A stretch of DNA of 60,492 bases, the filler included, from Dirinaria sp. TL-2023a (lineage: Eukaryota): the NCBI GenBank assembly GCA_051941275.1. It is 5 parts of 5 records of this genome, joined end to end, with 100 filler letters (N's around TTAATTAATTAA, not from the genome) between each part and the next. Parts side by side here need not be neighbours in the genome. Positions count along the whole stretch, not along the records: positions 1 to 12,037 come from JAVEBF010000795.1; 4 more parts are not named here. The stretch is one strand, 5' to 3'. The notes beneath the pieces were generated by a model. That model searched no databases. It worked only from the letters and a program-made list of their open reading frames with translations, and was not told where the DNA came from. Shown in pieces: positions 1,313-43,964 of the stretch. Position numbers and translations under genes: made by a program. Numbering within the stretch: position 1 is the stretch's first letter; every line of letters starts with the position of its first letter.

Positions 1313-4300
1313 TCACCAGCTCAACCTTGTAAGGATCACGTTCAGCGACGTCTGAGACTCCTGCAGACGCTGTAAAATCATCATCACCGTGCGCTTCTTT
1401 CTCATCCACCTCGTTCTTTCCGCTAGACAATTCACTTCCAGCCACTCCAATGTCCTTTTCAGCTCTGCGAGGGTGGTCATACAAGAAGCCAAGTCGGTCT
1501 GGATCTCGAGCATGACGAGCGGGGTAAGCGCCGTGGAAGCTATAACTGTCCCGTTCATGAAACGGTGCAGCTGGCGAAGACAGGCTACAATGCTTCTGAC
1601 CTCCGTCATGATGCATTGTGCAGAATTGTCTTCCTTCAGACTCACCATTCTCCAGCCAATGTGCTCTGCTATTGTCAATTGCTTCTGGATATCCTTCAGA
1701 GCGGTACACTGGTCGTATGAGACATCCCAAAAGATTTGCTGAAGCCGAGCGTCTCTCTGGCCGAGCAGCGATCCGATCAAGAGCCTGTTTCTCGTCTTGA
1801 AGGCTGGAGACTCTAGCACTCTCAACCAATTTTCTGTCTCCGGAGTGAGGAATTCACGATCGTCCTCTTTGGTGTATCCGTCCTCATCATACCATAGTAT
1901 TTTGCTGCATACATCGGGTCGAGGATTGAAATGAATGCGGCGAAGATGTGCAGCGGCATTGTAGTAAGCACCGTAGTTTTCCTTCGGGGTGTAGCGAGCG
2001 CCCCGAGGCAGAAATGCCCTGTCTCTGACGGCGCCACTGCGGAGTATTGCAGCGAATTTCGAGGTGAGATACAAGTCTTGATCCAGAGTCGGAAAAGTAC
2101 CATAGGAGACGTCATTGCCACCCGAGTGGGCTCGTCTGACATGGCGACGTAATTCATGTTTCCCTCGAAAACGATATGGCATGTCCTCACACTGGGGACA
2201 TTTGACCCATTTGAAGTGCTGGATGGCAGATAACTGCCAAAAGGATGGATAAGCTGAACTTTGCTCGAGACTAGCTTTTGGCCTCTTTCCAATTGGTATC
2301 ATGATATTTTGCGGTGTGACAGAATTGTGGTACTTCATGAGCGGTGTAGAGTCCGTGTCGTGAAGCATTAACAATGCATTAGCTACCGAACTGCACCTCT
2401 GGTTGAATTTCTCCAAGCCAAAATTTGGGCAGTTGGTGGCTGTTACATATGCAAATTCGACATCCGCAGGACTTTGGTAATCTTGGAAGCCGGAGAACCG
2501 GCCCAAAGAAAAGTTGCCGGCGAAAGATTCAGTCAGAAGGGGCCTTTGCAGATCTCTATTCTCGAATTCCAAAGCCAGCTGGGTGGGTTGAGAAGCCGGC
2601 GGAAGCTCCAGAGAGCAGCTCCAATTCACTTCATGGCCGGGATGCCGCAGGGATGCAAATAATGAGGGCAGTCGTCGACGTTTCGATCCACCTACATCAT
2701 CTACATTTTCACGTATTTCAGTGAACTTACGCTTTCGCTGACTCCAGGGCTGCTGATGAATTAAAACCGTCGGTGCTACTCCGACGTCAGCAATGGTCCT
2801 CAGTGCATCAGATCTCCGCCACTCTCGTCGCGCAAGACGATCTTTGCGTATGTTTTGCTTTAAACCCTCACTCAGTGCGGCTTTGCGGCTTTGTGTCCTC
2901 CCGGTCGGCAACGTCTCCGAGGGCCATAGAATCTTTTGCGTCAAAGTCCGACAAACTCCAAGGCTTGGGCCGGGGGCCCAGCCATGACATCTGGTGTGGT
3001 CTCTATCGATTCCGGGTACATCATAGGGACTCCATAAGAGGCATTTTGAAATTGTAGCCTCACGCATTGATGGGAGCATTGGATCCATGAGCGAAACCTC
3101 GCACCGACTGACTGAATCCGAGACTGCTTCAGGGCATCTCTTCGGCTTTTGAAGGGTACGTTGCCGATGATGACCGAGCCATAGCTGGTGGCGTAGCAGC
3201 ACCCTCGAGATCCTGGGCTGGTTCGAGAAACCGGCGATAACGATACCAGGACCAATGTAGAAAAAATACGGACTCATGGCACAGCCAAAAGCATCCAGAC
3301 TGCGAGAATAGACGATAGTGCAAATCGTCAATAAGAGTAGCGCGGGTATGTTAGTATGACGCTGTATCGAAAATGATGATTGTTCTATGTCACCCGCTTG
3401 ACGGCCTTGGGAAGGGCCTTGGTGGGACTTGGCGAACCATCTGCCTTTCTTTATATGCTCAATGTCTTTCATTATTGCCTGCTCTTTAGCTCGTGCGATT
3501 GCAGGAGCTTCAGCTTCGAATACGCTCACGGCTTTGTTTCGCTGGCGTTGGTTGCCAGTGATGCGATTGAATTGCTTGGCCACCAGCACATCGACAAGGA
3601 CACTGCCGAGGTTGAAAGATAGCAGACTAGATGATGTCAAGCTCGGAGGGCCACCAATGCCGAGGCAGGATAATGTCATCCCGGAAGTTGCTGTGGAGTA
3701 TAGCTGTAGGTAGATGCGCCAGGACGCTGAGGCGAGCCAGCGTCGGTCTCCAATGGGAGGAAGAATGGGAACACCTTTGTCGGGAAAGATACCGATATAT
3801 ATCATTCGATTTATAATGAGAGCAATAGACGCAAGGACCGTGACGCCGATTCTATCTATGCGATCAGTAATTTCTGAAACAGCCGACAGAGGTTGCGAAT
3901 TTGGCAAAGTTGGGATTTCTTCTGGAAGGGTGATGATATCGGCGTCAGCAAGCTGCATATCAATCTCACCAGTCCATAGCGTCGGTTGAATACCATGACG
4001 ACGCTCGATGTCAGCGAAGACCTTGTATGCTGGGATGATGTACGCCATGCCAGACACAGGATCACCAGCCACGATGTGACCGTAGATATCGCCTGTGTCG
4101 GCATTGACGACCCAGGCACCGCAATCGCCAGGCACTAATAGACCAGTTAATAATGCATATCATGCCAGTGTACGTAGAAGCCGACCGAGAATGATGGTCT
4201 TGTATTAGGGAGCTTACTTGTATCTCTTTCTAGCCTAACAGGCCACATCTCCTGGCAAGTGCGGGAGCCATGCATCCTGATATAGTATGGATTTCCAATA

Positions 4301-5754
4301 ATGATCCCTTTCACTAGCCCTGTCGTACCAGTGACAGCCCACACTGTGCTTTCCTCTACTTTTGACGCGATTGCTCGTGGAAAGAGAAACTGCGGGCTTT
4401 CGTGAGCGCTCGCTGGTAAAAGGATCCTATTCGGTTTCTGATATACGACGTCATCGACAGGTACACATTCGTAATCCAGGTCGTTCAAAGTATCATCAGA
4501 AACAAGTGTGGCAAATTTGATCGGTCCGCTCTGCTGTCCGTGCGGAGCATGCAGCGCTGCCCACTCAGCTTCCGAGAAAGCAACCGATCCTCGTATTGAT
4601 GTCCGACACGACGATGAAGCTGATGTCGCTGGCGTTGAGAATACGGCATGGTAAGTTTCGAACAGACTGTCCTCATCTGACTGTGGGAAGGATGTGTCGT
4701 CCATATCGGAAGGCGAGGACGAAGAGACACTAGCTTTACGACACACCAGCACAGTCAGCGATGATCGATAGGAAGCACAAAGCCAATCAAGAGTCTCAAT
4801 CCTTGATACATTGATGCCAAAAGTGGCTGCAGAATGCTTTCGATAGGAAAAGAGATTACACGTGTAAAGAGAGAAGCATGTTGGTGAGATGATTAGAGTC
4901 TCATGAGTATCATCCGCAAGGACTCATCCTCGATAATAGTCAGGAAACGACCTACCTGTACTCGTAATCTCTGCCAGATGATCATCATCATCAACATCGC
5001 TATCCTCGTCGAATTCTAGTAATTCATCTTTGGTAGGGAGTGTTTCGACGTCTTCATCGTGGTAATCAAAGCGGGGATGTTGAGGAATGAGGGCATGACG
5101 CTTGCCATTGAGCATTACCAAGCCCATCATGGTAGCAATCTTTGAGTCTCCAAAGGAGATCTGGGCGCCAAACGGTTCTGAGGAGGGGTCGGTCATGAAT
5201 ACGTCCAGTCCGCTTTGACCCACGCGAGAAAAGTCGGGGGCCAGTGCTGCTGCTTGATGGACCGCGGGCATCTTGTCTAGCGTCTTGATGGAGACCCCGG
5301 GGTATTCTTTGAGTAGTCCACTTTGTTCAAGGAGTGTCTTTGCGTATATTCGTTGGCGTCGACTTTTTGAGCTGAATACAATGACTGGTTGCGCCGAAGA
5401 AGGCCTACTTCCTACCATCCACATGTTGAAAGAGGTTACCCTAGGCTTAGGCTCCCCTTGCTCAAGCAACTCCTGATTGTCTGCCAATAGCTTGCCAATA
5501 GCAGGGGCGACCTTATTAAACACATCTAGCGCCGGCCCTACGACTTCCCAGCATTCGGTTCCTTTGAATTTCAATTCACATGGCCGGCCGACAGATTGCT
5601 CTGGATCCGACCAACTCTCCTTCCTCGTATTAAACAGCATTGTACTAGATCGGACGAGGGAAGGTAAAGACGCTTTAGCGTGATCCGTCAAGGATTGACG
5701 AAATGTCTGCCTGCGAGATAGTGGAGGAGCGGCCATTGATGACGATTGAGTCAT
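1313..5754 (-). CDS. Large multi-exon trypsin/chymotrypsin-fold peptidase-like protein (putative His-Asp-Cys triad) with a mosaic C-terminal region, ~1,380 aa
   Basis: Three ORF-track ORFs join in frame through introns 4955..4734 (GTAGGT, branch GCTGAC, AAG) and 4217..4135 (GTAAGC...TAG). Motifs: ALIPQHPRF (His 5077-5079), DLDY (Asp 4474-4476), MPGDCGAWVV...IYGHIVAG (Cys 4121-4123). A GTGAGT donor at 1316 suggests a possible short extra 3' exon (1255..~1162), so the 3' end is uncertain. Confidence 0.7.
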
Positions 5755-6247
5755 AATAAGCGCGCTACGCCCAGTACTTGAGGCAGGCCAGAGAACAGGT
5801 AGAAAAGAAAAGGAGAGGGCATTGGGGAGTTATGAGCAAGACCGGACTTGACCTGGACGAGGCAACGCTGCATTGGCGACAAGGCATTTTTCTTGCCTTG
5901 GCTGGTTGCCACCCAGAATGCAGCTTATGAGTAAGTCAGGGCTTGAGTAGCAAGCTCAGCTGCCATCGTAGCGACAAGGGCCAGAAGGACCAATCGAAAG
6001 GTGAGGCATGCAATCAATGCTCCTCTGGTACGCCGACATGCCCTCGAAGTGTGGAGGCGCAGCATTGCAGAATGCCAAGTCAAAGCAGTCGCACCCTGGG
6101 CAGCGAGGCGCCTCGAGAATGAAGTGCATGACAACGTGACGGGAGATGCAGAAAGCGGTATTAATTCTGCGTGCTCTCTCTGACTTAGTTATGGGTACTT
6201 TTACTTCCATCAGGTTCCATCAGGAGTGGTGAGTCGGAGTCGGAGTC
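5755..6247. promoter_or_regulatory. Putative bidirectional promoter of the protease-like / membrane-protein pair
   Basis: 493 bp between two divergent ATGs (5754 on -, 6248 on +). Function is inferred from position only. Confidence 0.5.
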
Positions 6248-7408
6248 ATGCCTGTGAAGAACCATAATCTTGCAGGGCAAGACCTCCTTTCCCGGCCCGT
6301 CGCGTCATCCGACCTGTCCCTGCCAATACGCCAAGCCCTGGCCAACGGCATCTTCCAGACGACCCTGACTGCGGACGATTTTGCATCACGTGACAGCGGG
6401 CTCCAGGCGTGGTTCAGTGATTGGTTCGAAGAGCAGTGCGAAGCAGCAGCCACTCAAGTCTCCGCATCGACTCACAACGATCTCCTACAAATTCTCAACT
6501 ACCTCCAGTCACGCGGCACTTTTGCCTCTCGTGCTGACATCGCCGACAAGCTCTGCACAACATCTTCCGCAACGAGGCCTGCTCTAGGCCTGAGTCCCGA
6601 TGACGAACGGCTCAACGCATCCCTCACGCTTGCCGCGAGGATATGGTTGTCTGTATCGATTGACTCGCTGCAACGCTTCACGACGCCCGGGTATTTCGTA
6701 TGCTGGGATAGGTACCAGTCCCTGTCCGAGGCAGTAGACAAAGAGTTCTTCTCCAAAGCGCAGACCACGGAATCGGTCAAGCTACCCAAGGTCTTCACAG
6801 CAGCGAACCTCGAAAAGATTGCCGGGATCCAGGTGCAATGGACGAGCAATTTGGCCGACCATCTCGTGTTGAAAGATGATGACAAAAAAGTCATGCTGTT
6901 CCATCAAGCTTCATTCCTGGAGCTGTCGAAGCAGTCGAAGAGGTAGGACTGCGCTTTCTGATCACGCGCAGCGCTTTTTTACAGCCAGATAAGAACTGAC
7001 AAGGGCCACAGAACCTTGCTCAAGGATGATTTGATCGAGGAGACCCTCCGAACCTTAGGCCTCCTCATACCCTCGAACGACCCCCGCTCTCAAGCATGGT
7101 TTGAAAAGAAGCAGAGAGGCTTGTCTCTCGACTCGAAAGCTGGTTCGTACGGCTCTCTCAATGCATCCGCGAGGCAGATCGACCAATTCCACTATTGGCG
7201 AGATCGATTGGTGGTGTTAAAGCAGGCCTTTGATGATTCCGAGCCGAATACTCTTGCTTCGTGGTGGTACGATGACAGGAAGAAGGTGCAATGGTATACC
7301 TTCTGGGTTGCTGCGATGGTGCTGTTGCTGACCGTGGTCTTCGGGCTAATACAGTCCGCTTCGGGTGTTGTTCAAGCATGGGCTGCGGTAAAAGCATTGA
7401 GCAAGTGA
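6248..7408 (+). CDS. Fungal protein of unknown function with a C-terminal hydrophobic membrane segment, 363 aa
   Basis: Exons 6248-6942 and 7012-7408 join in frame through a 69-nt intron (GTAGGA...ACTGAC...CAG). Motifs FTAANLEKIAGIQVQWTSNLADHL, EETLRTLGLL, YWRDRL and QWYTFWVAAMVLLLTVVFGLIQ match a widespread uncharacterised Pezizomycotina family as I recall it. Confidence 0.8.
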
Positions 7409-7654: not shown

Positions 7655-9855
7655 TCAGTCCTCGAGCAATTTCCCCAACCTAACTCTAGTAGGGCTTCCC
7701 CTTCCACTTCTCCGTCCGTCCAGGCCCACGAGCCTCTCCCGGCTTTCATTCCTTGAGCCCACGCCACCCACCAGTCCACCTCTAATTCCTAGTCCGAGAC
7801 TTTGCCCACTGGAATCGCTGCTTTCGCCATCGCCACCGTCGGCATCCGCGAGCTCAAATTGGTCGGTCGCGTTACCATCTTCCAACACCCTCTCATAGGC
7901 CCATCCAGTGGATGAGGAGCGGAAAATGGAAGGAATTTTGGAAGCGCCGGGCTTGCGGTGCCTAAGCGTCGAAGCTGTATGCAAGCCAATCCGGCGGTAA
8001 AGCCGTTGTCGACGTTCACGCCCACAAAGTAGAAAGCCAGCAAAGCAGAGCATCAGGACGAAAAGCAGGATACCGGGAATGCGTCGTGGTGTTTGTTCGA
8101 GGAATAGTGTATCGCGCCACGTTTCCTCTTCATTATCAGGCATAATGGATGGGCCGTCTGTGAGGGTCTGGTTTACTGAAGATGGCACAGAAGCGATCTT
8201 AGGCCCTGCATATTGGAAATCCGTGGGAAGGCCTCCGCCACGGCTATTGGTCCCGAAGCCCACTGGGAGTGAGGCATCCAGTGGCGGTATCTGTGATGAG
8301 GCGTAGAGAATCATCTTTCCAAGCGTCCAACTAACCTCTGTATCGTCAATCTTGTCAACAGCTTGGAAAGAATCTGTGTAGCCTTTCTCTTTCGCGCTGG
8401 ATAGGACTTCCTCCGTGCCATTATGACTATCAGGCGTCTCCTCAAGGCCAACTCGAGGGACACCGATCCCCTCATGCAAGAGATTGATAAGCCAGCTAGC
8501 CTTGAAGCAGACCTGGACCGCGGTTTTCTCGTCGACCTTCTTTCCCCACTGATGCTTTTCTATGCCTTCAGCTATTGTTTTCCATTCACCACTACAAAAT
8601 TCCTTGACGCGCTGCTGGTAAGTGTTAAAATCGTACGCTTTGTCCTTGTGGCCCATCTCAAAGACTTCGTGTGTGGTGTGCCAATACTCGCTAACGCCGA
8701 TGAAGTGATTGATATCAAAATCGATCGCAGGTACGTGCACTCCGTGCAGAAGACATGGTTCGTCTTCGCAAGGCGCATCCTTATCTAATAGGGGATAGGT
8801 GCGATGCAAGCATTCCTCAAACTTGCCGTTGCCGATGAGAGTGGGCGTCTTGCCTTGAACAGTCGAGCTGGGGAGTAAGACATCTCCTTGGGTGGTGATC
8901 TTCAATCCTATGGGGAGACAGGGATCCTCCAGCTCTGCCACATCTTTGTTACCGGACTCCTCCAGCAGGGCCTCAACATAGCGTCTTCGTGCTTCATTTG
9001 CACCATATCCGAGCCACGTTGTCACAAATATCCTAGATTCAACAGCCGCTCCGTTTATCGTTCGCAATCTTACTAACTTCAAATCGTCTGCATGCTTTTC
9101 TGATTCGGTGGCGTTCGGCGAGAAAGCAATCTGCGCAGATGCGCCTCCCATATCCAAAAATCCGTAGGTGTGATGTCCTTTGCCGTGCTCATGGTCCTCC
9201 GGGGAATCAAATCCTCCCAATAGATAATTGGCCGCAAGCCACCCGAATAAACCCTCGGTTTCCCCTGATATGACTTGGAAATTTGACTCACAGCTGGTGA
9301 TCTGAAAGTCGGTGTGAGACTTAGCGTATGAGCAGACCTCGGCGAGCAGGTCCTTGCGCTGCGAGTCTGGCAGCAGCCGCATGCCCGCAGTGGCAAGTAG
9401 GAAGATAGGGGTGTCGGGCACGGCATGTTTAGGAACAATGTCGAGAGTATGGTCAAAGAGCTTTTCCAGATGATCTTTTCCGACCAGTCCAGGTTTGGTG
9501 CCGAAAGTGGAGATGCCTAAGCCATTGTGTAAGCGGAAACGTCGCTCAAGCAATGCTCATTTGGACCGACCTGGATGGACTTTCTTCGTCCATTTTTTCT
9601 TGGTCTCGAGCTTAGGCAGCGAGTGCAGTTGAGTCTTGCTTGCTTCGCGGCGAGCTGTGGCGGGATCTAGCCAGCGATAGACATGTGCTCGGGTACCCTG
9701 AGATCGTCATGAACCTTGGTAGCCTACACGTATGAGCGCCACTTCCACGTACCGATGAGCCCGCATCGAGTATTACTCCATAGCGCCCTATGGAAGTCAG
9801 CCACTATGCCTTGCGCAATCTCAACTAACACCTATGAATGCGTACATTTTTCCAT
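7655..9855 (-). CDS. YND1: Golgi apyrase / nucleoside diphosphatase (GDA1/CD39 family)
   Basis: Spliced start MEKWRYGVILDAGSSGTR (ACR1). Also ATAGMR (ACR2), GETEG (ACR3), DMGGAS (ACR4), SWTLG (ACR5) and a C-terminal TM helix (IPGILLFVLMLCFAGFLL). Three short 5' introns. Confidence 0.92.
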
Positions 9856-15978: not shown

Positions 15979-16959
15979 TTAAGTACCCTCATACAGTGAG
16001 AGGCTGAAAGCAGCAGACTCCTCTAAACCGACGGACGAGCACGAGCTCCCAAACAGAGAGCCGCAACGTTTCGTCTTTTCCCACTCTGTATCAATCACAG
16101 TCTTGATTAGGCCGTTCTTTGGATTCCATCCATGCTTCACGAGCAGCGGCGGAACATCCACCCCGTGGACACTTCGAATCGCATTGATTGACTCTTCCAC
16201 CTGGCGAACTTTGACTTCCCCTTGAATCCACTTGGAGGTTCTCGGTCCGCCTTCAAATTCCACTTCCATTGGCATCGGGCCTTGACTGAGGTTCAAAGAA
16301 TGCACGTTTTTCCATCCGCCAGTCCAGTCCACAACACCATTAGTACCAAGTACAGAGAGCCAGTCAGTGCAGCCTTCGACATCCAGGTACTGCAACTTTA
16401 TCAAAGTCTTACTCAAGCGGGACAGATTGCCAGCTATAAAGGACCAGGGTTCGGCATGGACGGCCCAATAGGCTAAAGAAAGATGTGTGAGACAGGGTAT
16501 TCGGAGTGCGAAAGAAAGGAAGGAAAGCCATGATATGTTATGTCCAGGATGGGCTAGACAGAGGTGTGTTAGAGACGTGAATCCTGATGATACAGACCCG
16601 GCAAGATATCCATTCAGCTCATTAAAGGTCACGCTTGATCCAATGGAGCCCGAAAGATCCAGATGTCGCAACTCTATAGGAGATGAACTTGGGTAGTCCT
16701 CTGATTCTGTGTCCCGTTCCTGCAGGAAGGTCTGCAGCTCGCCCATGGAAATGCCCCTTGACCGGTACGCGGCGATGTAGCTGAGCAGATATTGTTTCAG
16801 ATGCACGGGAACATCTGTTGTATCGGAACGGCATGTGAACAACTCATTGTCCAAATTCTGTACAACGGCAATTAAACAGCGGTCCATTAAGGATCCCTCT
16901 GGAATTGCCTGACAGCCTGGGAAGCGGTATATGTGATGTCGGCATGTGAGAAGAGACAT
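15979..16959 (-). CDS. Leucine-rich-repeat (RNI-like) hypothetical protein
   Basis: Repeats LRHLDLSGS, LTHLCLAHP, LTHLSLAYW, LQYLDVEGC and VHSLNLSQ. First in-frame ATG is at 16959; the ORF is open to 16995. Confidence 0.7.
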   Translation of the reverse strand: MSLLTCRHHIYRFPGCQAIPEGSLMDRCLIAVVQNLDNELFTCRSDTTDVPVHLKQYLLSYIAAYRSRGISMGELQTFLQERDTESEDYPSSSPIELRHLDLSGSIGSSVTFNELNGYLAGSVSSGFTSLTHLCLAHPGHNISWLSFLSFALRIPCLTHLSLAYWAVHAEPWSFIAGNLSRLSKTLIKLQYLDVEGCTDWLSVLGTNGVVDWTGGWKNVHSLNLSQGPMPMEVEFEGGPRTSKWIQGEVKVRQVEESINAIRSVHGVDVPPLLVKHGWNPKNGLIKTVIDTEWEKTKRCGSLFGSSCSSVGLEESAAFSLSLYEGT

Positions 16960-18177
16960 GGTCAAAAAGTCTATATTATATGTATAATCAGACAAGCAAA
17001 GTGGAAAACAAGACGCCTGCCTTTAAACGGTTATGGGAGAGCGGCAAATCAGACCTGGTTTTAGTTGACCATTGTCTGTTGAGATAACCGAATATTGCTG
17101 CCGTTCCGCCTCGTTCCCTTGGTTCGAGGGGTTGGAGGATAGCCAAATCTATACTCGAGAATACGCAATCTGCTGTGGTCTGGAGCACGGTTCGCTGCGT
17201 CTCACTCGACTTGCTCTCGCCAAAGCCGGCAAAATGTAAGAGTGAGATATAAACAGCTCAACTAATGCGCCTCGCCCTATGTGTACAGCTTGTGCCTGTA
17301 CATCGTGCCTTTGCGCTGCACACGTCCAAGGAAAGGGTTTTGCAGCCCACACTTGGAGCGAGCAAGGCCTCGAATCACCAGAAACCGTGGCTGATGTTAC
17401 CTTAAGGTTGAAGTCTTGTGTTACTTGGAAGATAAGTCAAGGCAGTATGCCTCAGTTCGCTGCGAGTCCAATGAAATACCCGACCGCTCAAGTCAAGGCC
17501 CTAAGGCAAGTCCAAAAGTTAGTGGGCGGGCGTAACCGTGGCTGCAGAGACCAAACCCGCAAGCTTAAAGGTAATGAGCAGAATCAGCTTGTTCTCTGCG
17601 CATAAGGCGATTGAGAGGTTAAAGAGTCAAGTATTCTCCGAATTTCTTGCACCAAAGAACAAAATGCTCTCAGCCGTGCGACGTGATCTCGCAGCTGACA
17701 TTTACCCGCACTCGTGTGGCAGCCAACAACGTGGGGGTAACGGACTCTTTTGCGTGATTCGTTTCATCGCCTTGTTCGTCTCGCTCGGCCTGCACTATGA
17801 TTTGTTCGAGCTCTCGCCTTGCAGCAACGCTGCATATCACACTGGCTAAGCTTTAATTGGCGGCGTGTCGTTGCATGCTTTATCAATAATCAAGCATTTA
17901 TTAGGTGGCAGAATGGATCGTGGATCCGGACACGAAGAGTTTATCTGCCGAAAGGCCAGGTCGATTCTAATCTAGCCCTCAGTTCCTCCGTGAGGTGTGG
18001 CACCGCTCCATGTCCTATCAATACTAGCTACCACGGGAGGTGCTCTCAATCGCTGAACAGAGGGGGAACGTACTTCAAGGCTTCGAGTCATGAAGCTTCG
18101 TATCCTCTTTCTTGCCAGCGAACACATTTCCCTCGGATCTGCAATTTTTACAGATCCTCGTTGCACAGCGTGGAGAA

Positions 18178-21100
18178 ATGGCTGAAGCTCTCGCGGCTGT
18201 TGGAATTGGCGCCTCCATCTTACAGTTTGTCACTGTGACTGGAAAACTGATACAGCGCATCAATGAATTCAGTTCGACTGCTGAACAAATGCCCAAAGCG
18301 CTTCGAGCTATCCATTTACAGTTACCCTTTCTCGTCGAAACTTGTCGAAATTTGGATACCGGTAACGAGTCCGAGAATGTTTTAGCAATCATTAATGCAT
18401 GTCATGAAGAGATTGAAGACCTCCACCAGATGCTCAACAAGATTCACTCGGGACCTGAAGATCGGAAACTACGTCGCGCTTTCAAAGCGTTTAACAGCAT
18501 TCGGTACCAAGATAGATTCGACGTTGCGCTGCAAAAGATCGAACACTTGAAAACGAACTTGATTCTCCACTCTTGCCAGGCAAGAAATGAAGTTCCTAAA
18601 GGAGGGTCTACAGCACAACAAATAACTCACAATCTCCGATCTGCACCCCTAACGCCCTCTATCCCTCGCCGTAAACTCCTGCGGCAGATTCATCAACAAT
18701 TCAATGAGTATGAATACGAGAGCAGCAGACACAGGATTGTCGTATTGATTGGTATGGGAGGTCAAGGAAAGAGTTGGCTCGCGCTTGATTTTGGACGGCA
18801 GGTCGCAACCGAGTCTCCCTCCACGCTGGTTTTGTGGCTCGACGCAACGTCCAAAAGAAGTTTGACAAGAAGTCTTGAGGACATTGCAGATCGATGGAAT
18901 GGTCGTAAGGGAAAGTTCGTCGATAGCGACTCGCGAATGAAGTATGTTAGGGAAGTCTTGTCCGAGCGAGAATGGCTACTGGTCTTCGACAACTACGATC
19001 ACCCCGACCAGTTCGCCGACATTTGTACGTTCATACCACCAGGTAACGGTAGGATCCTGATCACCAGCAGACATGCAGATGCTGGCATGTTAGGGAAAAC
19101 TATACAATTTGCAGGGATGGATCAACGTGAAGGCTTGGATCTTCTTCGTCGTCGGACCGAACAGAATCTTGACGATCCTGCTATTCATGAAGAAGCAATT
19201 AAGATATTGCAGGCACTTGGCCATCTCCCACTCGCCATCGACCAAGCCGCAGCGTACATTCGCCAGCAGCGGCTTCCTCTCCATCAATTTCTCCAGCGTT
19301 ATGAGAGCCAGAAGGAGACGGTTCTCAACCAGAAACACGTCTATTGGGACTACAAAAAAAAGCTTCACGGAGAAGAAAAAGAAGAGACGCCGCTAGGTGT
19401 ACTAACAACCTGGGAGTTGTCGATCCAGCAGGTCAGTGGCATAAGTTCCACGCGGAGTGAGGTAGAACACCTCCTAACGATTGCCGCGTTTCTCGGCCAT
19501 ATTGAAGTCAGTGAAAGCCTATTCAGAGAGTACGCCCAGCGGGTGCGGCCAGTACCTGAGTGGCTGGGCCGCTTCACAAAAAAGGGAGAATGGGACCCGC
19601 ACCCGTATCGAGATGTAGTATCAGAGCTTCTAAGGCTATCATTAGCGCAGGGCAATAGCAGCGGCTCTGGCGAATGTTGCTTGTCACTGCATCCAATGAT
19701 CAAGGACTGGCTTCAATTACGGATTAGTGACGCTGATCGCAGTGGGTACATAATGGAGACGATCAATATTCTAGCCAATTTCATCGACGCAAACGTCCAG
19801 GAACGCTCACTACAAGAGGCTAGAGGGCTTTTAGGACACCTAGATGCCTGCATTCATAGTCACAGGAAATTCCAGACGGCTGGAGGTCGTTTAGGATTCG
19901 GACATCTGCGCGGTCACGCTATAACATTCTCCACATTCTACTTGAGCCATGGGCGATACCGGGAAGCTGAGGAAGGGTTCCAAGCTGTTTTAGATCATGA
20001 TGAGGAATATTACGGGAAGAACCATACTCATACATTCCGCACAATGAGACACCTTGCTGATGCGTTCGTGCACGGAGGCAAATACGAAAAGGCGCATTAC
20101 TTGCTCAGTAAGGCTCTACATGAAAGCGAGAAGAAGACGGATCTCGAAACGCTCCATATTCTGTCAGGATTGGCTGGGGTTTATGCCAAGCAAGACCGTC
20201 CAGCTGATGCTGAGAGATACTATGAGGCTGCTCTAAGAGGCCATGCCGTGCGGAAGGAGCTCGCTAAACCACATGAAGTTTTTCCATTGTATGAACGGCT
20301 TGCAGAGGTAAAGCGATATCTTGGCAAGCATGCCGAGGCAGAGGACCTCTATATGCAAGCACACCGAGGCTACGAGCAGAATTGCGCTTATGATGAGGAT
20401 GCCACACTGGACATGTTGCGTACAGCTGGAGGGCTTGCAGATCTGCTTCGCGCCATCGGCCGCTATGGCGAAGCCGAGATCTCCTACCGAGAAGCATGGC
20501 AAGGCTATAAGAGGCATCTTGGCTCCGATCATCCCAAAACGACCGTGATGTTGGCCAACCTCGCTATCTCTTGCCGCAATCAAGAGAAATTTGAGGAAGC
20601 AGAGATGTATCTCGAAGAGTCTGTAGCAGTACTTCGCCAAAGCCTCGGACCAGATCACCCGGACAGTCTCCGAGCGTTGATGAATTTGTCTATATGCATA
20701 GACAAGCAGAAACGTTACAAAGAGGCAGAAACCAAGTACTGGGAAGTCTTGAAAGGACGCGAGAAAAAACTGGGACTGAGCCATCCTTATACGCTGAGGA
20801 CAATTGAACGACTCGCGCACATGCTTTGGATGCAAGATCAGCATGACAGAGCAGAGAGCCTAGTTCGCAAGATTCTCACCAAAGAGGGAAAGCTGTCTGT
20901 TGAGCACCAGCCCAGGTCGATCAATTGCGGAAAATTTCCAGCACTCGAAAAGCTTTATACCGACGCTCGAGAACGCTGTAAGTCTAAATTGTCGCCCGGG
21001 CACGTAGACGCTCTTGAGACATATGAATGCTTGCGGCTCGTCTACGTCGAGCAGGGCCAGCATGACAAGGCTAAGGAGCTCGCTGATCAACTTGCGAATG

Positions 21101-21405
21101 CGAAATACAAATCGAAGCCGGACTGCGAACAGCAAACGCAAGATAAAGGAGCAAAGAGTTTCTCACCGAAATCGCAAGAAGAAAAATTGGAAGAGGCCGC
21201 CGACAACGCGCAACAAGACCGGAGCCTGCCAGATAAAGAATCGGATTTGCTAGAACAAACAGAGAGTAAGATCCTGCCAAAGAGCGCTCAACATTTCGTT
21301 CAACAGAGTCATAATCCTTATCGAACTGCACTGTATCTTCTATCGCTGGCGCTGTGCCTCTGGTACATCTGGTCTGGCTGGCCTCTATCACATCCACCAC
21401 CCTGA
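18178..21405 (+). CDS. Fungal NLR: SesA/HeLo-like N-terminal helical domain, NB-ARC, TPR repeats and a C-terminal hydrophobic tail
   Basis: N-terminus MAEALAAVGIGASILQFV, Walker A GMGGQGKS (18751-18774), Walker B WLLVFDNYD, ILITSR, GHLPLAIDQAAAYI, LHPMI, and kinesin-light-chain-type TPRs (LGSDHPKT, LGPDHPDSL, LGLSHPYTL). Intronless. Confidence 0.92.
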   Translation: MAEALAAVGIGASILQFVTVTGKLIQRINEFSSTAEQMPKALRAIHLQLPFLVETCRNLDTGNESENVLAIINACHEEIEDLHQMLNKIHSGPEDRKLRRAFKAFNSIRYQDRFDVALQKIEHLKTNLILHSCQARNEVPKGGSTAQQITHNLRSAPLTPSIPRRKLLRQIHQQFNEYEYESSRHRIVVLIGMGGQGKSWLALDFGRQVATESPSTLVLWLDATSKRSLTRSLEDIADRWNGRKGKFVDSDSRMKYVREVLSEREWLLVFDNYDHPDQFADICTFIPPGNGRILITSRHADAGMLGKTIQFAGMDQREGLDLLRRRTEQNLDDPAIHEEAIKILQALGHLPLAIDQAAAYIRQQRLPLHQFLQRYESQKETVLNQKHVYWDYKKKLHGEEKEETPLGVLTTWELSIQQVSGISSTRSEVEHLLTIAAFLGHIEVSESLFREYAQRVRPVPEWLGRFTKKGEWDPHPYRDVVSELLRLSLAQGNSSGSGECCLSLHPMIKDWLQLRISDADRSGYIMETINILANFIDANVQERSLQEARGLLGHLDACIHSHRKFQTAGGRLGFGHLRGHAITFSTFYLSHGRYREAEEGFQAVLDHDEEYYGKNHTHTFRTMRHLADAFVHGGKYEKAHYLLSKALHESEKKTDLETLHILSGLAGVYAKQDRPADAERYYEAALRGHAVRKELAKPHEVFPLYERLAEVKRYLGKHAEAEDLYMQAHRGYEQNCAYDEDATLDMLRTAGGLADLLRAIGRYGEAEISYREAWQGYKRHLGSDHPKTTVMLANLAISCRNQEKFEEAEMYLEESVAVLRQSLGPDHPDSLRALMNLSICIDKQKRYKEAETKYWEVLKGREKKLGLSHPYTLRTIERLAHMLWMQDQHDRAESLVRKILTKEGKLSVEHQPRSINCGKFPALEKLYTDARERCKSKLSPGHVDALETYECLRLVYVEQGQHDKAKELADQLANAKYKSKPDCEQQTQDKGAKSFSPKSQEEKLEEAADNAQQDRSLPDKESDLLEQTESKILPKSAQHFVQQSHNPYRTALYLLSLALCLWYIWSGWPLSHPPP

Positions 21406-40993: not shown

Positions 40994-43964
40994 CTAGAAG
41001 ATATCCGAAGTCGAATCGTCGTAGTCCTCCTCGATGCCGATCTTTCTATACGGAGGTTCTACAGAACCAGAACCTTCATGCTGCTGTTGATGAGGTTCTG
41101 GAGATCGACTCGAGCATGGTGCTATTGGAGGGACAGCGGCGTCGAACCCCAAACGTGATGAAGATTCCGAAGCTGGGGCATCATCATCTTTAGAGTTGAT
41201 GTTAGATTCGTCGCTGAAGTCGCTCTCGGAATATTGCTCTGCTTCCTCAGACGTGGCACTATCGCTGTTCACATCATCTGCAGGTTCAGGTTCCTGATCG
41301 CCTTCGGTTCGACGTCTGATGTGACTGTCTGGATTGTAATGGAAGATATCTTTAATGCTCTTAGCGATATCTGCCCGACGGAACTCGTTGAGACAGTCAT
41401 CTGGATCCGGCAAGCTGTTCTGCCGGGCCTGGTGTTCAAAGTCGAGCATCCGCTGCCAGAGACCGCCGATTATTCCTTCAATCTTCTGTTCTTTGGCTTT
41501 GTACTCTTCCGTGACGACTTTTCCATGGGCTTTCCATTCGCTGCAGAGACGCCAGTGCTCCCACTTTCTCGGATCAGCCAACTGCTCATCGCCGTCGTCC
41601 AGTTGCTTCCTCAAGTTGTCAACTTCTTCCTCGGCAGAGATAGCGCGAGCTTTCCAATCTTCAAGCTCGTAGACGAAGTCTTGCTTACATGCTTCTTCTG
41701 CTGCGAGCTGGTTGCCCTGCACTTGACAAGTGTAGCGCCAATCGTCCAGCTCTTGTTGTAGGGCATCAAGTCTCTGCTGTCGCAAATTGGCCATGTCTTC
41801 TTTGTCTTGCAGAAGCAATAATGCACCCTCGCTAGCGCCTGCTCGAATCTGCTCCTCGTATCTCTGAGCGGAGTCTTTGAGTTGCTGTTCGGGTGCTGCG
41901 ATCTTGCCATCACGATCTGCTATGATGTCGGTACAACCTGGGGTGTGGAAGTCCATCTGCAGCTTGATAGCGTCGAGCTCGACCTGAGCACTGGTTTTGA
42001 ACTCCAACAGGTCCTCATTCTCCTTTATCTTCGCTTTGTAGACTCTTGTCATCGCTCGCCGCTCGTTATTGGACTCGAGTCTGCACTTGTTGGAGGACTT
42101 CAGCGCTAGAGTGAGCCACGAAACTCTCTCCTTCAAATCTTTATTGTCCTCGTTGACCAATTCCCATTGAGCTTTGGTTGCCTCATCAACATCTCCCACA
42201 GTCATCTTACTACGCAATCGGGTAATCATTGAATTGCAAGCATGCTGGAAGCTGTCATGGCTCATGATCAAGTCCTGCTCACTTGATTTGATGACACTCA
42301 ACTCAATCTTCAACGAGTCAATCTCTTCATCTTTCTCCGCTTTGAGATCTTCAAGCTCACCGCGAAGCTTGGAATTCCAGCCGATGACCTCATTGTGCTC
42401 CTTAACGAGAAGATCATGCATTTCTCCTTGCTTTCGGAGAAGCTCGTCTGTCTCTGCAGTAACATTCGGAGATCGTTCTGTCTCCGCGCGCAAATCAGCA
42501 AGCTTCAAATGCTTGACCTCGGCAATGGTTCGAAACTCTGTAACTTCCCGCTGGCAATTCTGCAGCTTAGAATTGGCAGCTTCAAGATTCTGCCGCAACT
42601 CTATGTTGTTTTGTTGGGCCGCATCGCGCTCCGACATTGCTTGCTCGAGGGCGGCAGATGCATTGTTTTCATCCGTCTGACTGCCTATACCTGGTTGCCG
42701 CGTTTTCTCTTTTGCTTTGCCCTTGCCCTTGCATTTGCCTTTACCTTTATTCTTAGGCTTCATAGACTTCATCGTCTCCTCCAAATCGGAGTATCGTTGG
42801 CTTAAATTAGCAGCTTGACTCTCGAGTGTCGCGATCTTATCTATCAGTTGCGATTCTCCCGTAGCCTTTTCCACTCGTTCTTGTTCGTGCTCTTTGGATG
42901 CTTCGGGCTTTAGCAGCTTTCTCCGCAGCGCTGCCAGTTTGTTCTCATTCTCCTGTCTAAGGGCGGTAATCTCGACTTCATGAGCCTTCTTTAGATTTTC
43001 AATCTGTTTGCCATGATCATGTAGCTTGGAGTCCCCCATGATGTCCTTGGAATTCTCATTGAGTGTCTTGATGGTGCTGCTTTGCGAGCAATTACTGACC
43101 ATTTGGGATCGCTTGACGTTCTCTGGGGAAGGCGTGTGTGGGGTCGTCTCCGATGCATTCTTTGGCGGCGTAGATTGAGGCAGGTCGACTCGCTCCCGCA
43201 TTTCAGGGTCTGCATCTTTGATGGCTTGAGACAGATCGATTTCTATAGGAGCTTGACTCATCCTCGATGATGGTGATGCATCGTGTAGAGCAATTGCCCC
43301 ATCCTTGCACTGCGTGCGCTGATCTTTTCTCAAACGCTTTTCTGCGTTGAGTTCAGCCCCTACCCGTGGACTTGTGGATTTAGGTGAATCAGCCTCTCTC
43401 GAAGAAATTTTGCTGATGTCGGATTCTGCTGACTTTCCTGGCTCATCATCATAGACCTGAGCAAGATCCTCGACGGCAATACCACTCTCGAGTTCGCCAC
43501 TACGTTGTCTAACGACAGCCTGCTCGGGCACCAGCTTGGAAGGCTCCGGGGTTGCGCTCTGTGTTGATGGGGTAGTCATTGCAGTGGTGCGAACGGTGGT
43601 CTGCGCTAAAGCTGCGACTGCGCCACCCTCTGGCGAATTAGAGCCTTGGACCATAAGATGTACAATCAGGTGATCTCTCCGCCGATGTTCTGAGGCTTTG
43701 CTAGTAAGCTCTTGGTCTAAAGCAGAATCAACTTCATCGGCAGCGTTGATGCTTGGTACATCAGGTCGTTTGGTATGGAAGATGGCTTTGATTCGCTGTC
43801 CCAGCGTCGGCTTCCGGGACCGGTCTTTTGCTGACTGGTATATGTTAGTCCCTTGATCCAAGTCCAGGTACCAATGCGTATCATGAAACACTTACGGAAG
43901 AAATACTCAACGGTTCACTGGAGCTCTTGGGACGTCCTTTGGTTTTACGAACTTTTCGGTACAT
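40994..43964 (-). CDS. Large coiled-coil hypothetical protein, ~970 aa
   Basis: A 2.9-kb open frame rich in E/K/Q/L heptads with disordered ends. A probable first exon 43964-43896 (MYRKVRK...) is joined in phase 0 by intron 43895..43835 (GTAAGT...CTAAC...CAG). Confidence 0.75.

Follow-up and report, generated by a model that had tools for sequence, protein, structure and literature searches.

A divergent gene pair encoding a chymotrypsin-fold-type protease and a predicted tail-anchored protein: a candidate two-gene module in Pezizomycotina

Why would a large protease gene with a fast-evolving tail stand head to head with a compact gene for a membrane protein? This question is raised by a locus at positions 1313..7408 of the window (the whole stretch of 60,492 nucleotides analysed here), which comes from a metagenome-assembled genome of the lichen-forming fungus Dirinaria sp. 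TL-2023a. According to open reading frame (ORF) and sequence analysis, gene A lies on the minus strand, has three exons and encodes 1378 residues (ATG 5754, end 1313), and gene B lies on the plus strand, has two exons and encodes 363 residues (ATG 6248, end 7408). The 493 bp between the two start codons (5755..6247) presumably represent a shared promoter. A first-pass annotation of this DNA had pointed out the head-to-head arrangement, the gap, the length of B and the motifs WTSNLADHL, YWRDRL and QWYTFWVA, all of which are indeed present where it placed them, and had proposed that the pair is a protease/membrane-effector module analogous to known fungal ones. Our results make it very probable that A and B are functionally coupled. 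More tentatively, we favour the view that they form one functional two-gene module, widespread in Pezizomycotina, in which the protease acts on B and the membrane part of B provides the output. Judged by sequence, A/B appears to be an undescribed two-part system. A literature search, with most subscription journals outside its coverage, found no description of the pair, the B family or DUF7896, a domain present in the tail of A.

Linkage and co-divergence of A and B

The first-pass annotation staked its proposal on the two families being linked and divergent in genomes other than this one, and they are. Metagenome contigs of the Joint Genome Institute (JGI) were searched with an alignment of B, which gave 300 relatives; the best 80 loci were kept with flanks of up to 10 kb and were searched in six frames with a hidden Markov model (HMM) of the protease unit, the conserved N-terminal part of A. 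The unit is found in 50 of the 80 B loci, directly upstream and divergent in 48 of them, and downstream in tandem in the other two (L035 and L076). The gap between the A and B HMM matches in the divergent loci ranges from 368 to 1264 bp, with a median of 597. Most loci lacking the unit end too soon; among those with at least 1 kb of upstream sequence, 48 of 58 have it. When B is collapsed at 95% identity into 57 clusters, 16 are too short to be informative, and 36 of the remaining 41 are paired, leaving five unpaired.

The association is also seen outside this set. In Fulgogasparrea the two genes carry consecutive locus tags (Q9201_005029 and Q9201_005030), and six further pairs of A and B matches lie on records of equal size, two of these contigs being only 6.4 and 9.4 kb long. 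Two extra B loci found in a 'prokaryote' collection (L081, OZ255840.1, and L082, CAWGMN010000026.1) both have a divergent A gene. They are filed as bacterial metagenome-assembled genomes (Lapillicoccus and Terriglobia), but the A/B pair contains introns and the guanine-cytosine content is ~51%; at least these stretches look like fungal DNA under bacterial names. OZ255840.1 (~6.7 Mb), the one record covered by our census from the A side, has exactly one B and one A gene, divergent and ~0.5 kb apart.

No larger syntenic block carries the pair along: the other neighbours in the window (apyrase, A49 and aminotransferase) occur in none of the 82 loci, and in 35 of the 80 metagenome loci the sequence available for this comparison reaches 3 kb or more beyond B on its downstream side. 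The gene next to B (7658-9556, minus strand) encodes a GDA1/CD39 apyrase (Pfam E 1.7e-88), and its earlier identification as YND1 stands at the level of the family. Moreover, A and B have diverged together. Trees built for 31 pairs have 17 of 28 splits in common, compared with 0.17 on average and never more than 2 for shuffled pairings, and the Mantel correlation (r 0.87) is matched by 0 of 2000 permutations; the co-phylogeny that the first-pass annotation had suggested looking for is thus present.

Could an old bidirectional promoter, keeping the pair together for the sake of expression with no direct biochemical link between the products, account for all this? A shared promoter would give two genes set head to head with little sequence between them, and A and B are both present in the same RNA libraries. 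However, the pair stays joined while all other neighbours change, it survives rearrangement to tandem in L035 and L076, and the trees are congruent over deep divergence. Promoter sharing alone would also be expected to keep pairs of non-housekeeping, expanded families together only rarely. Co-regulation as the sole explanation is improbable.

Three further searches concern the linkage. No fusion of A and B was found among 300 proteins (170 match A, 129 match B and none both). Scanning genome contigs with the protease alignment A2 produced 24 pattern matches, none of them confirmed. Enrichment of k-mers in 34 intergenic regions singled out one 7-mer present in 16 of them, against 2.7 expected; the set includes unaligned coding ends and related loci, and we draw nothing from it.

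Two observations relate to the space upstream of B. In a B clade without the protease gene there are small divergent ORFs of ~190-235 codons (L005 8791-9411, L007 8935-9516, L008 8849-9442 and L011 7618-8322, all on the minus strand) with a signal-peptide-like start and no Pfam match. Over 82 columns, the C-terminal half of these ORFs can be aligned with the N-terminal subdomain of the protease unit (hhalign probability 68%, E 4.8e-5); they may have split off from gene A or be what is left of it. In three other loci, which belong to one cluster, a second short match to the same subdomain (HMM positions 57-103, E 1.5e-7) lies on the minus strand between the protease gene and B (L055 7007-7147, L056 9370-9510, L057 4059-4199) and could represent an additional exon or a fragment that was duplicated.

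Gene models and the protease unit

The gene structures are backed by RNA contigs from a lichen metatranscriptome (one sample of one study, three runs), which are 90-99% alike to the window and come from the same or a sister species. They cover much of both genes and skip all three introns exactly: the intron of B (6943..7011, plus strand, 69 nt, GT..AG) in all three runs, intron 2 of A (4135..4217, minus strand, 83 nt; 4134 joined to 4218) in two runs, X1 and X3, and intron 1 of A (4734..4955, minus strand, 222 nt, GT..AG; 4733 joined to 4956) in one, X3. Contig depth provides no basis for ranking A against B, and the stretch 1000-1895, uncovered in all three runs, is uninformative.

On the minus strand, exon 1 of gene A (4956..5754; supported by ORF, sequence and the junction 4956|4733 in an RNA contig) encodes an N-terminal α/β subdomain and the first protease barrel. 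Exon 2 (4218..4733) encodes an acidic, Ser-rich insert of low confidence and the start of the second barrel, and relatives P0120, P0121, P0124 and P0125 read without interruption across its junction. Exon 3 (1313..4134) begins with the end of the conserved protease unit (4025..4134), comprising the GDCG motif and the last conserved helix, and continues into the variable tail (1313..4024) of ~900 residues, a single open frame closed by the stop at 1313-1315. The deposited model P0118 (Q9191_005290, a hypothetical protein of 1334 residues) matches the long exon of gene A with 100% identity but mis-splices both introns: it uses a later Met start, retains part of intron 1 and drops the end of exon 2, and with it part of the second barrel. 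Our model of 1378 residues has the support of the RNA contigs and of the same four relatives.

Given a deposited model that is wrong at both introns, and some database relatives that are mis-fused (for example, to ketoacyl-synthase domains in P0122 and P0126), it might be argued that what we call the tail belongs to another gene further downstream, in frame by chance, and that the protease has no variable tail. Such an artefact is highly improbable. The frame is open for 911 codons and is covered by RNA contigs at 1987-2932 and 3116-4134, and a single contig runs from 3547 in the tail over intron 2 into exon 2, which agrees with the ~900-residue tail described in the first-pass annotation. RNA of the relative carries in this tail an insertion of 12 nt that preserves the frame and a +1/-1 pair whose members compensate each other (window 2231 and 2551-2554), so that the frame is kept despite the fast evolution of the tail. 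Elsewhere, single uninterrupted ORFs join the protease unit to CBM21 (L056), F-box (L073) and Transglut_core (L013 and L047) domains.

The protease unit itself (A-dom hereafter) comprises the conserved N-terminal ~475 residues, in which the extra α/β subdomain is followed by a protease core broken by the acidic insert. We characterised it using the AlphaFold2 (AF2) model of relative P0124 (71% identical) and 64 aligned sequences. The model is confident over residues 1-460, except for loops at ~120-140 and ~190-210 and the insert. In VIA-align comparisons the core (~153-460) matches Streptomyces griseus protease B (SGPB; Z 15.8, 171 residues, root-mean-square deviation (rmsd) 2.8) and alpha-lytic protease (Z 14.8), and rice NAL1 (Z 15.6, 275 residues, model residues 5-466) is the sole match that also spans the N-terminal subdomain. 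A Foldseek search with the same model returned 27 matches at E<=1e-3. The catalytic residues follow the order His-Asp-nucleophile, the last within a GD[SC]G motif; in the window they are His226 (5079-5077) in exon 1, Asp353 (4476-4474) in exon 2 and Cys443 (4123-4121) inside GDCGAWVV in exon 3, all on the minus strand. None of the 64 aligned relatives departs from His or Asp at these positions, and the nucleophile column holds 46 Cys, 16 Ser and two gaps. Wherever the nucleophile can be read in B-paired representatives it is kept (30 of 30; 25 Cys and 5 Ser). We predict that A-dom is active, the swapping of Cys and Ser being what would be expected of an active PA-clan enzyme.

The model thus bears out the trypsin-fold-like protease with a Cys nucleophile that had been read from the window, although by a route other than sequence families. 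No Pfam family covers the first ~475 residues (hmmscan with P0118, P0120 and P0124 gave no match there at E<=0.1), Trypsin, Trypsin_2, Peptidase_S64 and Nal1_C do not exceed their cut-offs (weak Trypsin_2 matches occur in 7 of 64 members, best E 4e-4), and a Protein Data Bank (PDB) sequence search with P0124 produced a chance-level match only (E 0.4). Because no curated sequence family matches, the assignment of A-dom as a putative PA-clan chymotrypsin-fold protease rests on its modelled fold and its triad. The family is large: a profile search of 1.84 billion representative proteins found relatives in 3153 clusters at E<=1e-3 and in 733 at E<=1e-30, the named members including Talaromyces, Aspergillus, Neonectria, Lecanora, Cladonia, Cudoniella and several Teloschistaceae. 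In the Atlas, the neighbourhood of A-dom contains clusters with Peptidase_S64 (PF08192, the Ssy5 family) in 10% of members and Nal1_C in 16-19%, which we treat as a lead only.

Variable tails, the membrane-anchored partner and a possible mode of action

By sequence comparison, the protease unit and B appear to be the constant parts of the system and the tail of A its variable part: in comparisons with close relatives the protease unit reaches 82% identity and B 85%, but the tail only 35-42%. In the window the tail contains one hydrophobic segment (3794-3850), a C2H2-like stretch (2126-2203) and a match to DUF7896 (PF25438; 1886-1984) that scores 37.6 bits against a cut-off of 25 and spans profile positions 33-57 of 83 only. 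The Cys-rich middle of this domain, present in P0121, is substituted here, and the copy is apparently partial or degenerate. A Pfam scan of 53 long A-dom members found transglutaminase/PNGase-like tails in seven, DUF7896 in three, a NACHT-type NTPase with ankyrin repeats in two, Patatin in two, and CorA, CBM21, NDT80/PhoG (P0190), HET and TPR in one each, 34 having no Pfam match. In the two proteins with NACHT and ankyrin, A-dom takes the position in which fungal NOD-like receptors (NLRs) have their N-terminal effector domain. Tails with WD40, DUF3295 and DUF6594 are also present in the wider family, DUF7896 recurs in L002, P0121, P0208, P0226 and P0233, and P0146 and P0210 carry the annotation 'png1'. 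Among A genes paired with B, the tails in which Pfam identified a domain have DUF7896 together with a ubiquitin-like domain in L002, a PNGase-like domain in L013 and L047, CBM21 in L056 and an F-box in L073. In L002 (7515-8228, minus strand) a ULD_2 ubiquitin-like domain (E 2.7e-28) comes straight after the protease unit and is followed by a full DUF7896. The ULD_2, F-box and PNGase-like tails hint at ubiquitin or endoplasmic reticulum-associated degradation pathways.

Many of these tails resemble cargo, and some are of DNA-binding types (DUF7896, and NDT80_PhoG in P0190). This brings up a different arrangement, in which B is an anchor, a regulator or a dedicated inhibitor rather than a substrate, keeping the protease unit tethered or restrained at a membrane until a signal makes the protease cut its own chain after that unit, freeing a C-terminal module (e.g., a zinc-finger or NDT80-type DNA binder, or a PNGase-like, F-box or CBM21 module), much as NAL1 and Ssy5 process transcription regulators. 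Conservation stops sharply ~15 residues after the final helix of the protease; a semi-conserved P-x-L (L in 36 of 60) marks this point, and the variable region lies beyond it. Within A, conservation is highest in the N-terminal subdomain (38%, versus 32% for the second barrel), the protease-less B clade keeps the small upstream ORF aligning to it, and tight one-to-one co-divergence is typical of binding partners. The Atlas proximity to Peptidase_S64 and Nal1_C clusters points the same way, and the structure closest to the whole unit is NAL1, for which the accessible part of the source describes hydrolysis of the protein FZP (PMC12012508). On the other hand, no self-cleavage site was identified in A, and the signal-peptide-like start would put the small upstream ORFs across the membrane from the bulk of B. 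Moreover, self-cleavage leaves without explanation why unrelated cargos would have the same anchor and why NACHT with ankyrin, TPR and WD40 tails occur in the wider family. On balance, we consider it the strongest rival to protease action on B, possible but rather unlikely.

What, then, is B? Its hydrophobicity profile has a single segment at residues 327-345 of 363 (Kyte-Doolittle 2.29), in keeping with the hydrophobic C-terminus noted earlier, and its N-terminus is polar. The AF2 model of B (predicted local distance difference test score 88, predicted template-modelling score 0.82) is mostly helical, with a two-stranded hairpin near WT.NLADHL and a C-terminal helix at 320-362. Sequence and model thus predict a tail-anchored protein with one C-terminal transmembrane (TM) segment and without an N-terminal signal peptide. 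Exon 1 (6248..6942, plus strand) encodes the helical N-terminal part, which is variable, and the conserved core, where WTSNLADHL lies at 6839-6865, and exon 2 (7012..7408, plus strand) the juxtamembrane helices, including YWRDRL, and the TM helix (7295-7351), with the stop at 7406-7408. The mean pairwise identity rises from 24% in residues 1-170 to 50% in 171-320 and to 58% in the TM region, the most conserved part of the protein. The TM helix contains near-invariant polar residues, and its conservation hints at a role beyond anchoring.

Among 663 scored candidates 117 are relatives of B at E<=1e-3; all named ones belong to Pezizomycotina, and none of the relatives has a precomputed Pfam domain. 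The protein ranges over lichen-forming, plant-associated and mould fungi, and the Atlas adds only unnamed Ascomycota clusters. Foldseek found no match to the B model in the PDB at E<=1e-3. When the full-length model was compared with 48,161 chains by VIA-align, the best match (Z 5.6) covered only the C-terminal helix (322-363), and the globular part did not exceed Z 2.1. Gasdermin Pfam matches are absent from 25 B-family members at E<=1 and from P0001, P0004, P0076 and P0109 at E<=0.1. Matches to DUF5326 in 12 of the 25 members (best E 0.0012) are below the cut-off and lie over the TM segment; we read them as composition and rejected this assignment. B can therefore be kept as the uncharacterised membrane-anchored protein of the first-pass annotation, whose suggestion of a fold comparison for both proteins was productive for A, giving the chymotrypsin fold, and for B yielded no solved match beyond the C-terminal helix.

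The way of action that we favour for the pair would proceed as follows. The C-terminal module of A would control or target the protease; the protease would then act on B, most likely removing its variable N-terminal part by cleavage; and the conserved membrane-embedded part of B would give the output at the membrane. Contact between the two proteins, the cut in B, the direction in which the signal passes and its outcome in the cell are what we infer here, and sensing by the tail, cell death and non-self recognition would be extensions of the same scheme. We prefer action of the protease on B because of the analogy with gasdermin clusters, the position of A-dom as an NLR effector domain and the conservation of the TM segment of B. 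To our knowledge, in the well-studied cases of a multidomain protease gene conserved beside a small gene, the neighbour is always the substrate. For fungal gasdermins this relationship is documented in the accessible parts of one study (PMC8851545) and one review (PMC12881547). The module originally proposed for this locus is thus partly supported: the trypsin fold, the membrane-anchored partner, and the linkage with co-divergence all hold, and the activation of a membrane effector by the protease would be the part that these results leave conditional.

A number of observations weigh against protease action on B. Gasdermin and HeLo executioners are soluble until triggered, whereas B is already anchored in the membrane. 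The invariant charged or His/Ser residues of the B core (D204, H205, H219, S222 and E242) would suit an active or binding site better than a passive substrate. No repeat sensor was detected in any of the 39 scanned tail ORFs of B-paired A genes, 28 of which have no Pfam match, and the Pfam-type tails that these genes do carry weaken the idea of a sensor tail, the release of a C-terminal module fitting them about as well. B can apparently persist without the protease gene, because four of the five unpaired clusters form a single B clade (Shimodaira-Hasegawa-like approximate likelihood ratio test 100) nested among paired ones, and one further cluster also lacks it; in addition, L034 has no A although near-identical loci do. 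The linkage was counted almost wholly from the B side. Finally, tree congruence cannot separate co-inherited orthologues from true co-evolution.

A bolder version of protease action on B can also be formulated. In it, A/B would be a two-component system found throughout Pezizomycotina and not recognised before. A-dom would be a third protease class (PA clan, NAL1-like, Cys/Ser) serving as the signalling domain of sensor-like and NLR-like proteins, paired with a tail-anchored executioner or transducer of new fold that is activated by cleavage; the pair would then parallel HET-Q1/HET-Q2 without a gasdermin, its variable tails serving as sensors or integrated baits. We find this version conceivable but doubtful. 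Even so, there is a real chance that A/B represents a new class of executioner or switch. We know of few module types in fungal regulated cell death and immune-like signalling, namely NLR/amyloid/HeLo systems and gasdermins with S8 or CHAT proteases. A/B shows linkage as tight as that of the gasdermin clusters, from two families without a Pfam model. If the coupling is real, it provides a name and a testable partner for a protease domain with more than 3000 sequence clusters, and likewise for a conserved membrane protein, would account for the N-terminal extension of 'png1'-annotated proteins at least in Lecanora helva and Neonectria magnoliae, and opens a route to a new proteolytic switch at the membrane. 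In the accessible portion of a survey of NLR N-terminal domains (PMC9815663), no trypsin-type domain is mentioned.

Elsewhere in the window, ~11 kb from the pair, there is a fungal NLR-type gene (18094-21402, plus strand) with an open frame of 1103 residues comprising SesA (E 2.8e-8), NB-ARC (E 1.6e-8) and many TPR repeats. Two long open frames of 965 and 347 codons (40997-43891 and 15982-17022, both on the minus strand) have no Pfam match at E<=1e-3.

Comparison with known systems

Considered by its parts, gene A has likenesses to three kinds of chymotrypsin-fold proteases. With SGPB and alpha-lytic protease, representing the bacterial S1 proteases, it shares the core (Z 14.8-15.8 over 170-179 residues, rmsd ~2.8-3.1), the His-Asp-nucleophile order and the GD[SC]G motif. 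Unlike these secreted enzymes, which have pro-regions, A lacks a signal peptide; a large insert separates its His from its Asp, and it has an extra N-terminal subdomain as well as a tail. Rice NAL1, described in the accessible text as a trypsin-like serine protease (8pmg, 8pmi, 8hau; PMC12012508), matches both the subdomain and the core and is likewise an intracellular regulatory protease. However, identity to it is only ~11-12%, with neither Nal1_C nor Trypsin above the cut-off in A-dom, and the fungal unit differs in its usual Cys nucleophile, its long variable tails and its dedicated neighbour gene.

The third is Ssy5 of yeast (Peptidase_S64), which belongs to the SPS amino-acid sensor. This chymotrypsin-fold protease has a signalling role inside the cell, acts at the membrane together with partners and processes latent transcription factors; its catalytic domain is at the C-terminus. 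The likeness is seen in the Atlas neighbourhood of A-dom, where PF08192 occurs in 10% of cluster members. In contrast, A-dom itself has no PF08192 match by hmmscan and the order of domains is different, and Ssy5 acts on substrates that are separate proteins and is not known to have a B-like neighbour.

As a pair, A/B comes closest to the gasdermin/HET-Q2 clusters, exemplified by Podospora HET-Q1/HET-Q2, in which the gene of a multidomain protease likewise adjoins that of a compact membrane-related protein. According to the accessible part of the published survey, ~80% of 1,884 fungal gasdermin genes cluster with genes of multidomain S8 or CHAT proteases, some of them NLRs (PMC8851545), a rate comparable to the 36 of 41 informative clusters for A/B. 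As far as the same text goes, the gasdermin clusters also resemble A/B in an association that is long-lived on trees and in a protease that is sometimes the N-terminal domain of an NLR, with diverse C-terminal domains.

The differences are just as clear. The A protease is of the PA clan (Cys/Ser) by fold and triad, and neither a Peptidase_S8 nor a CHAT Pfam match was found in the A-dom family. B is mostly helical and predicted to be tail-anchored, with no Gasdermin match. The layout of A/B is almost always divergent, and the tails of paired genes are mostly not repeat sensors. With a partner other than a gasdermin and a protease of neither the S8 nor the CHAT type, A/B stands outside the gasdermin/HET-Q2 clusters, although by analogy it appears to work like them. 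The most likely mechanism for the pair would be the logic of the protease/gasdermin clusters, assembled from unrelated families.

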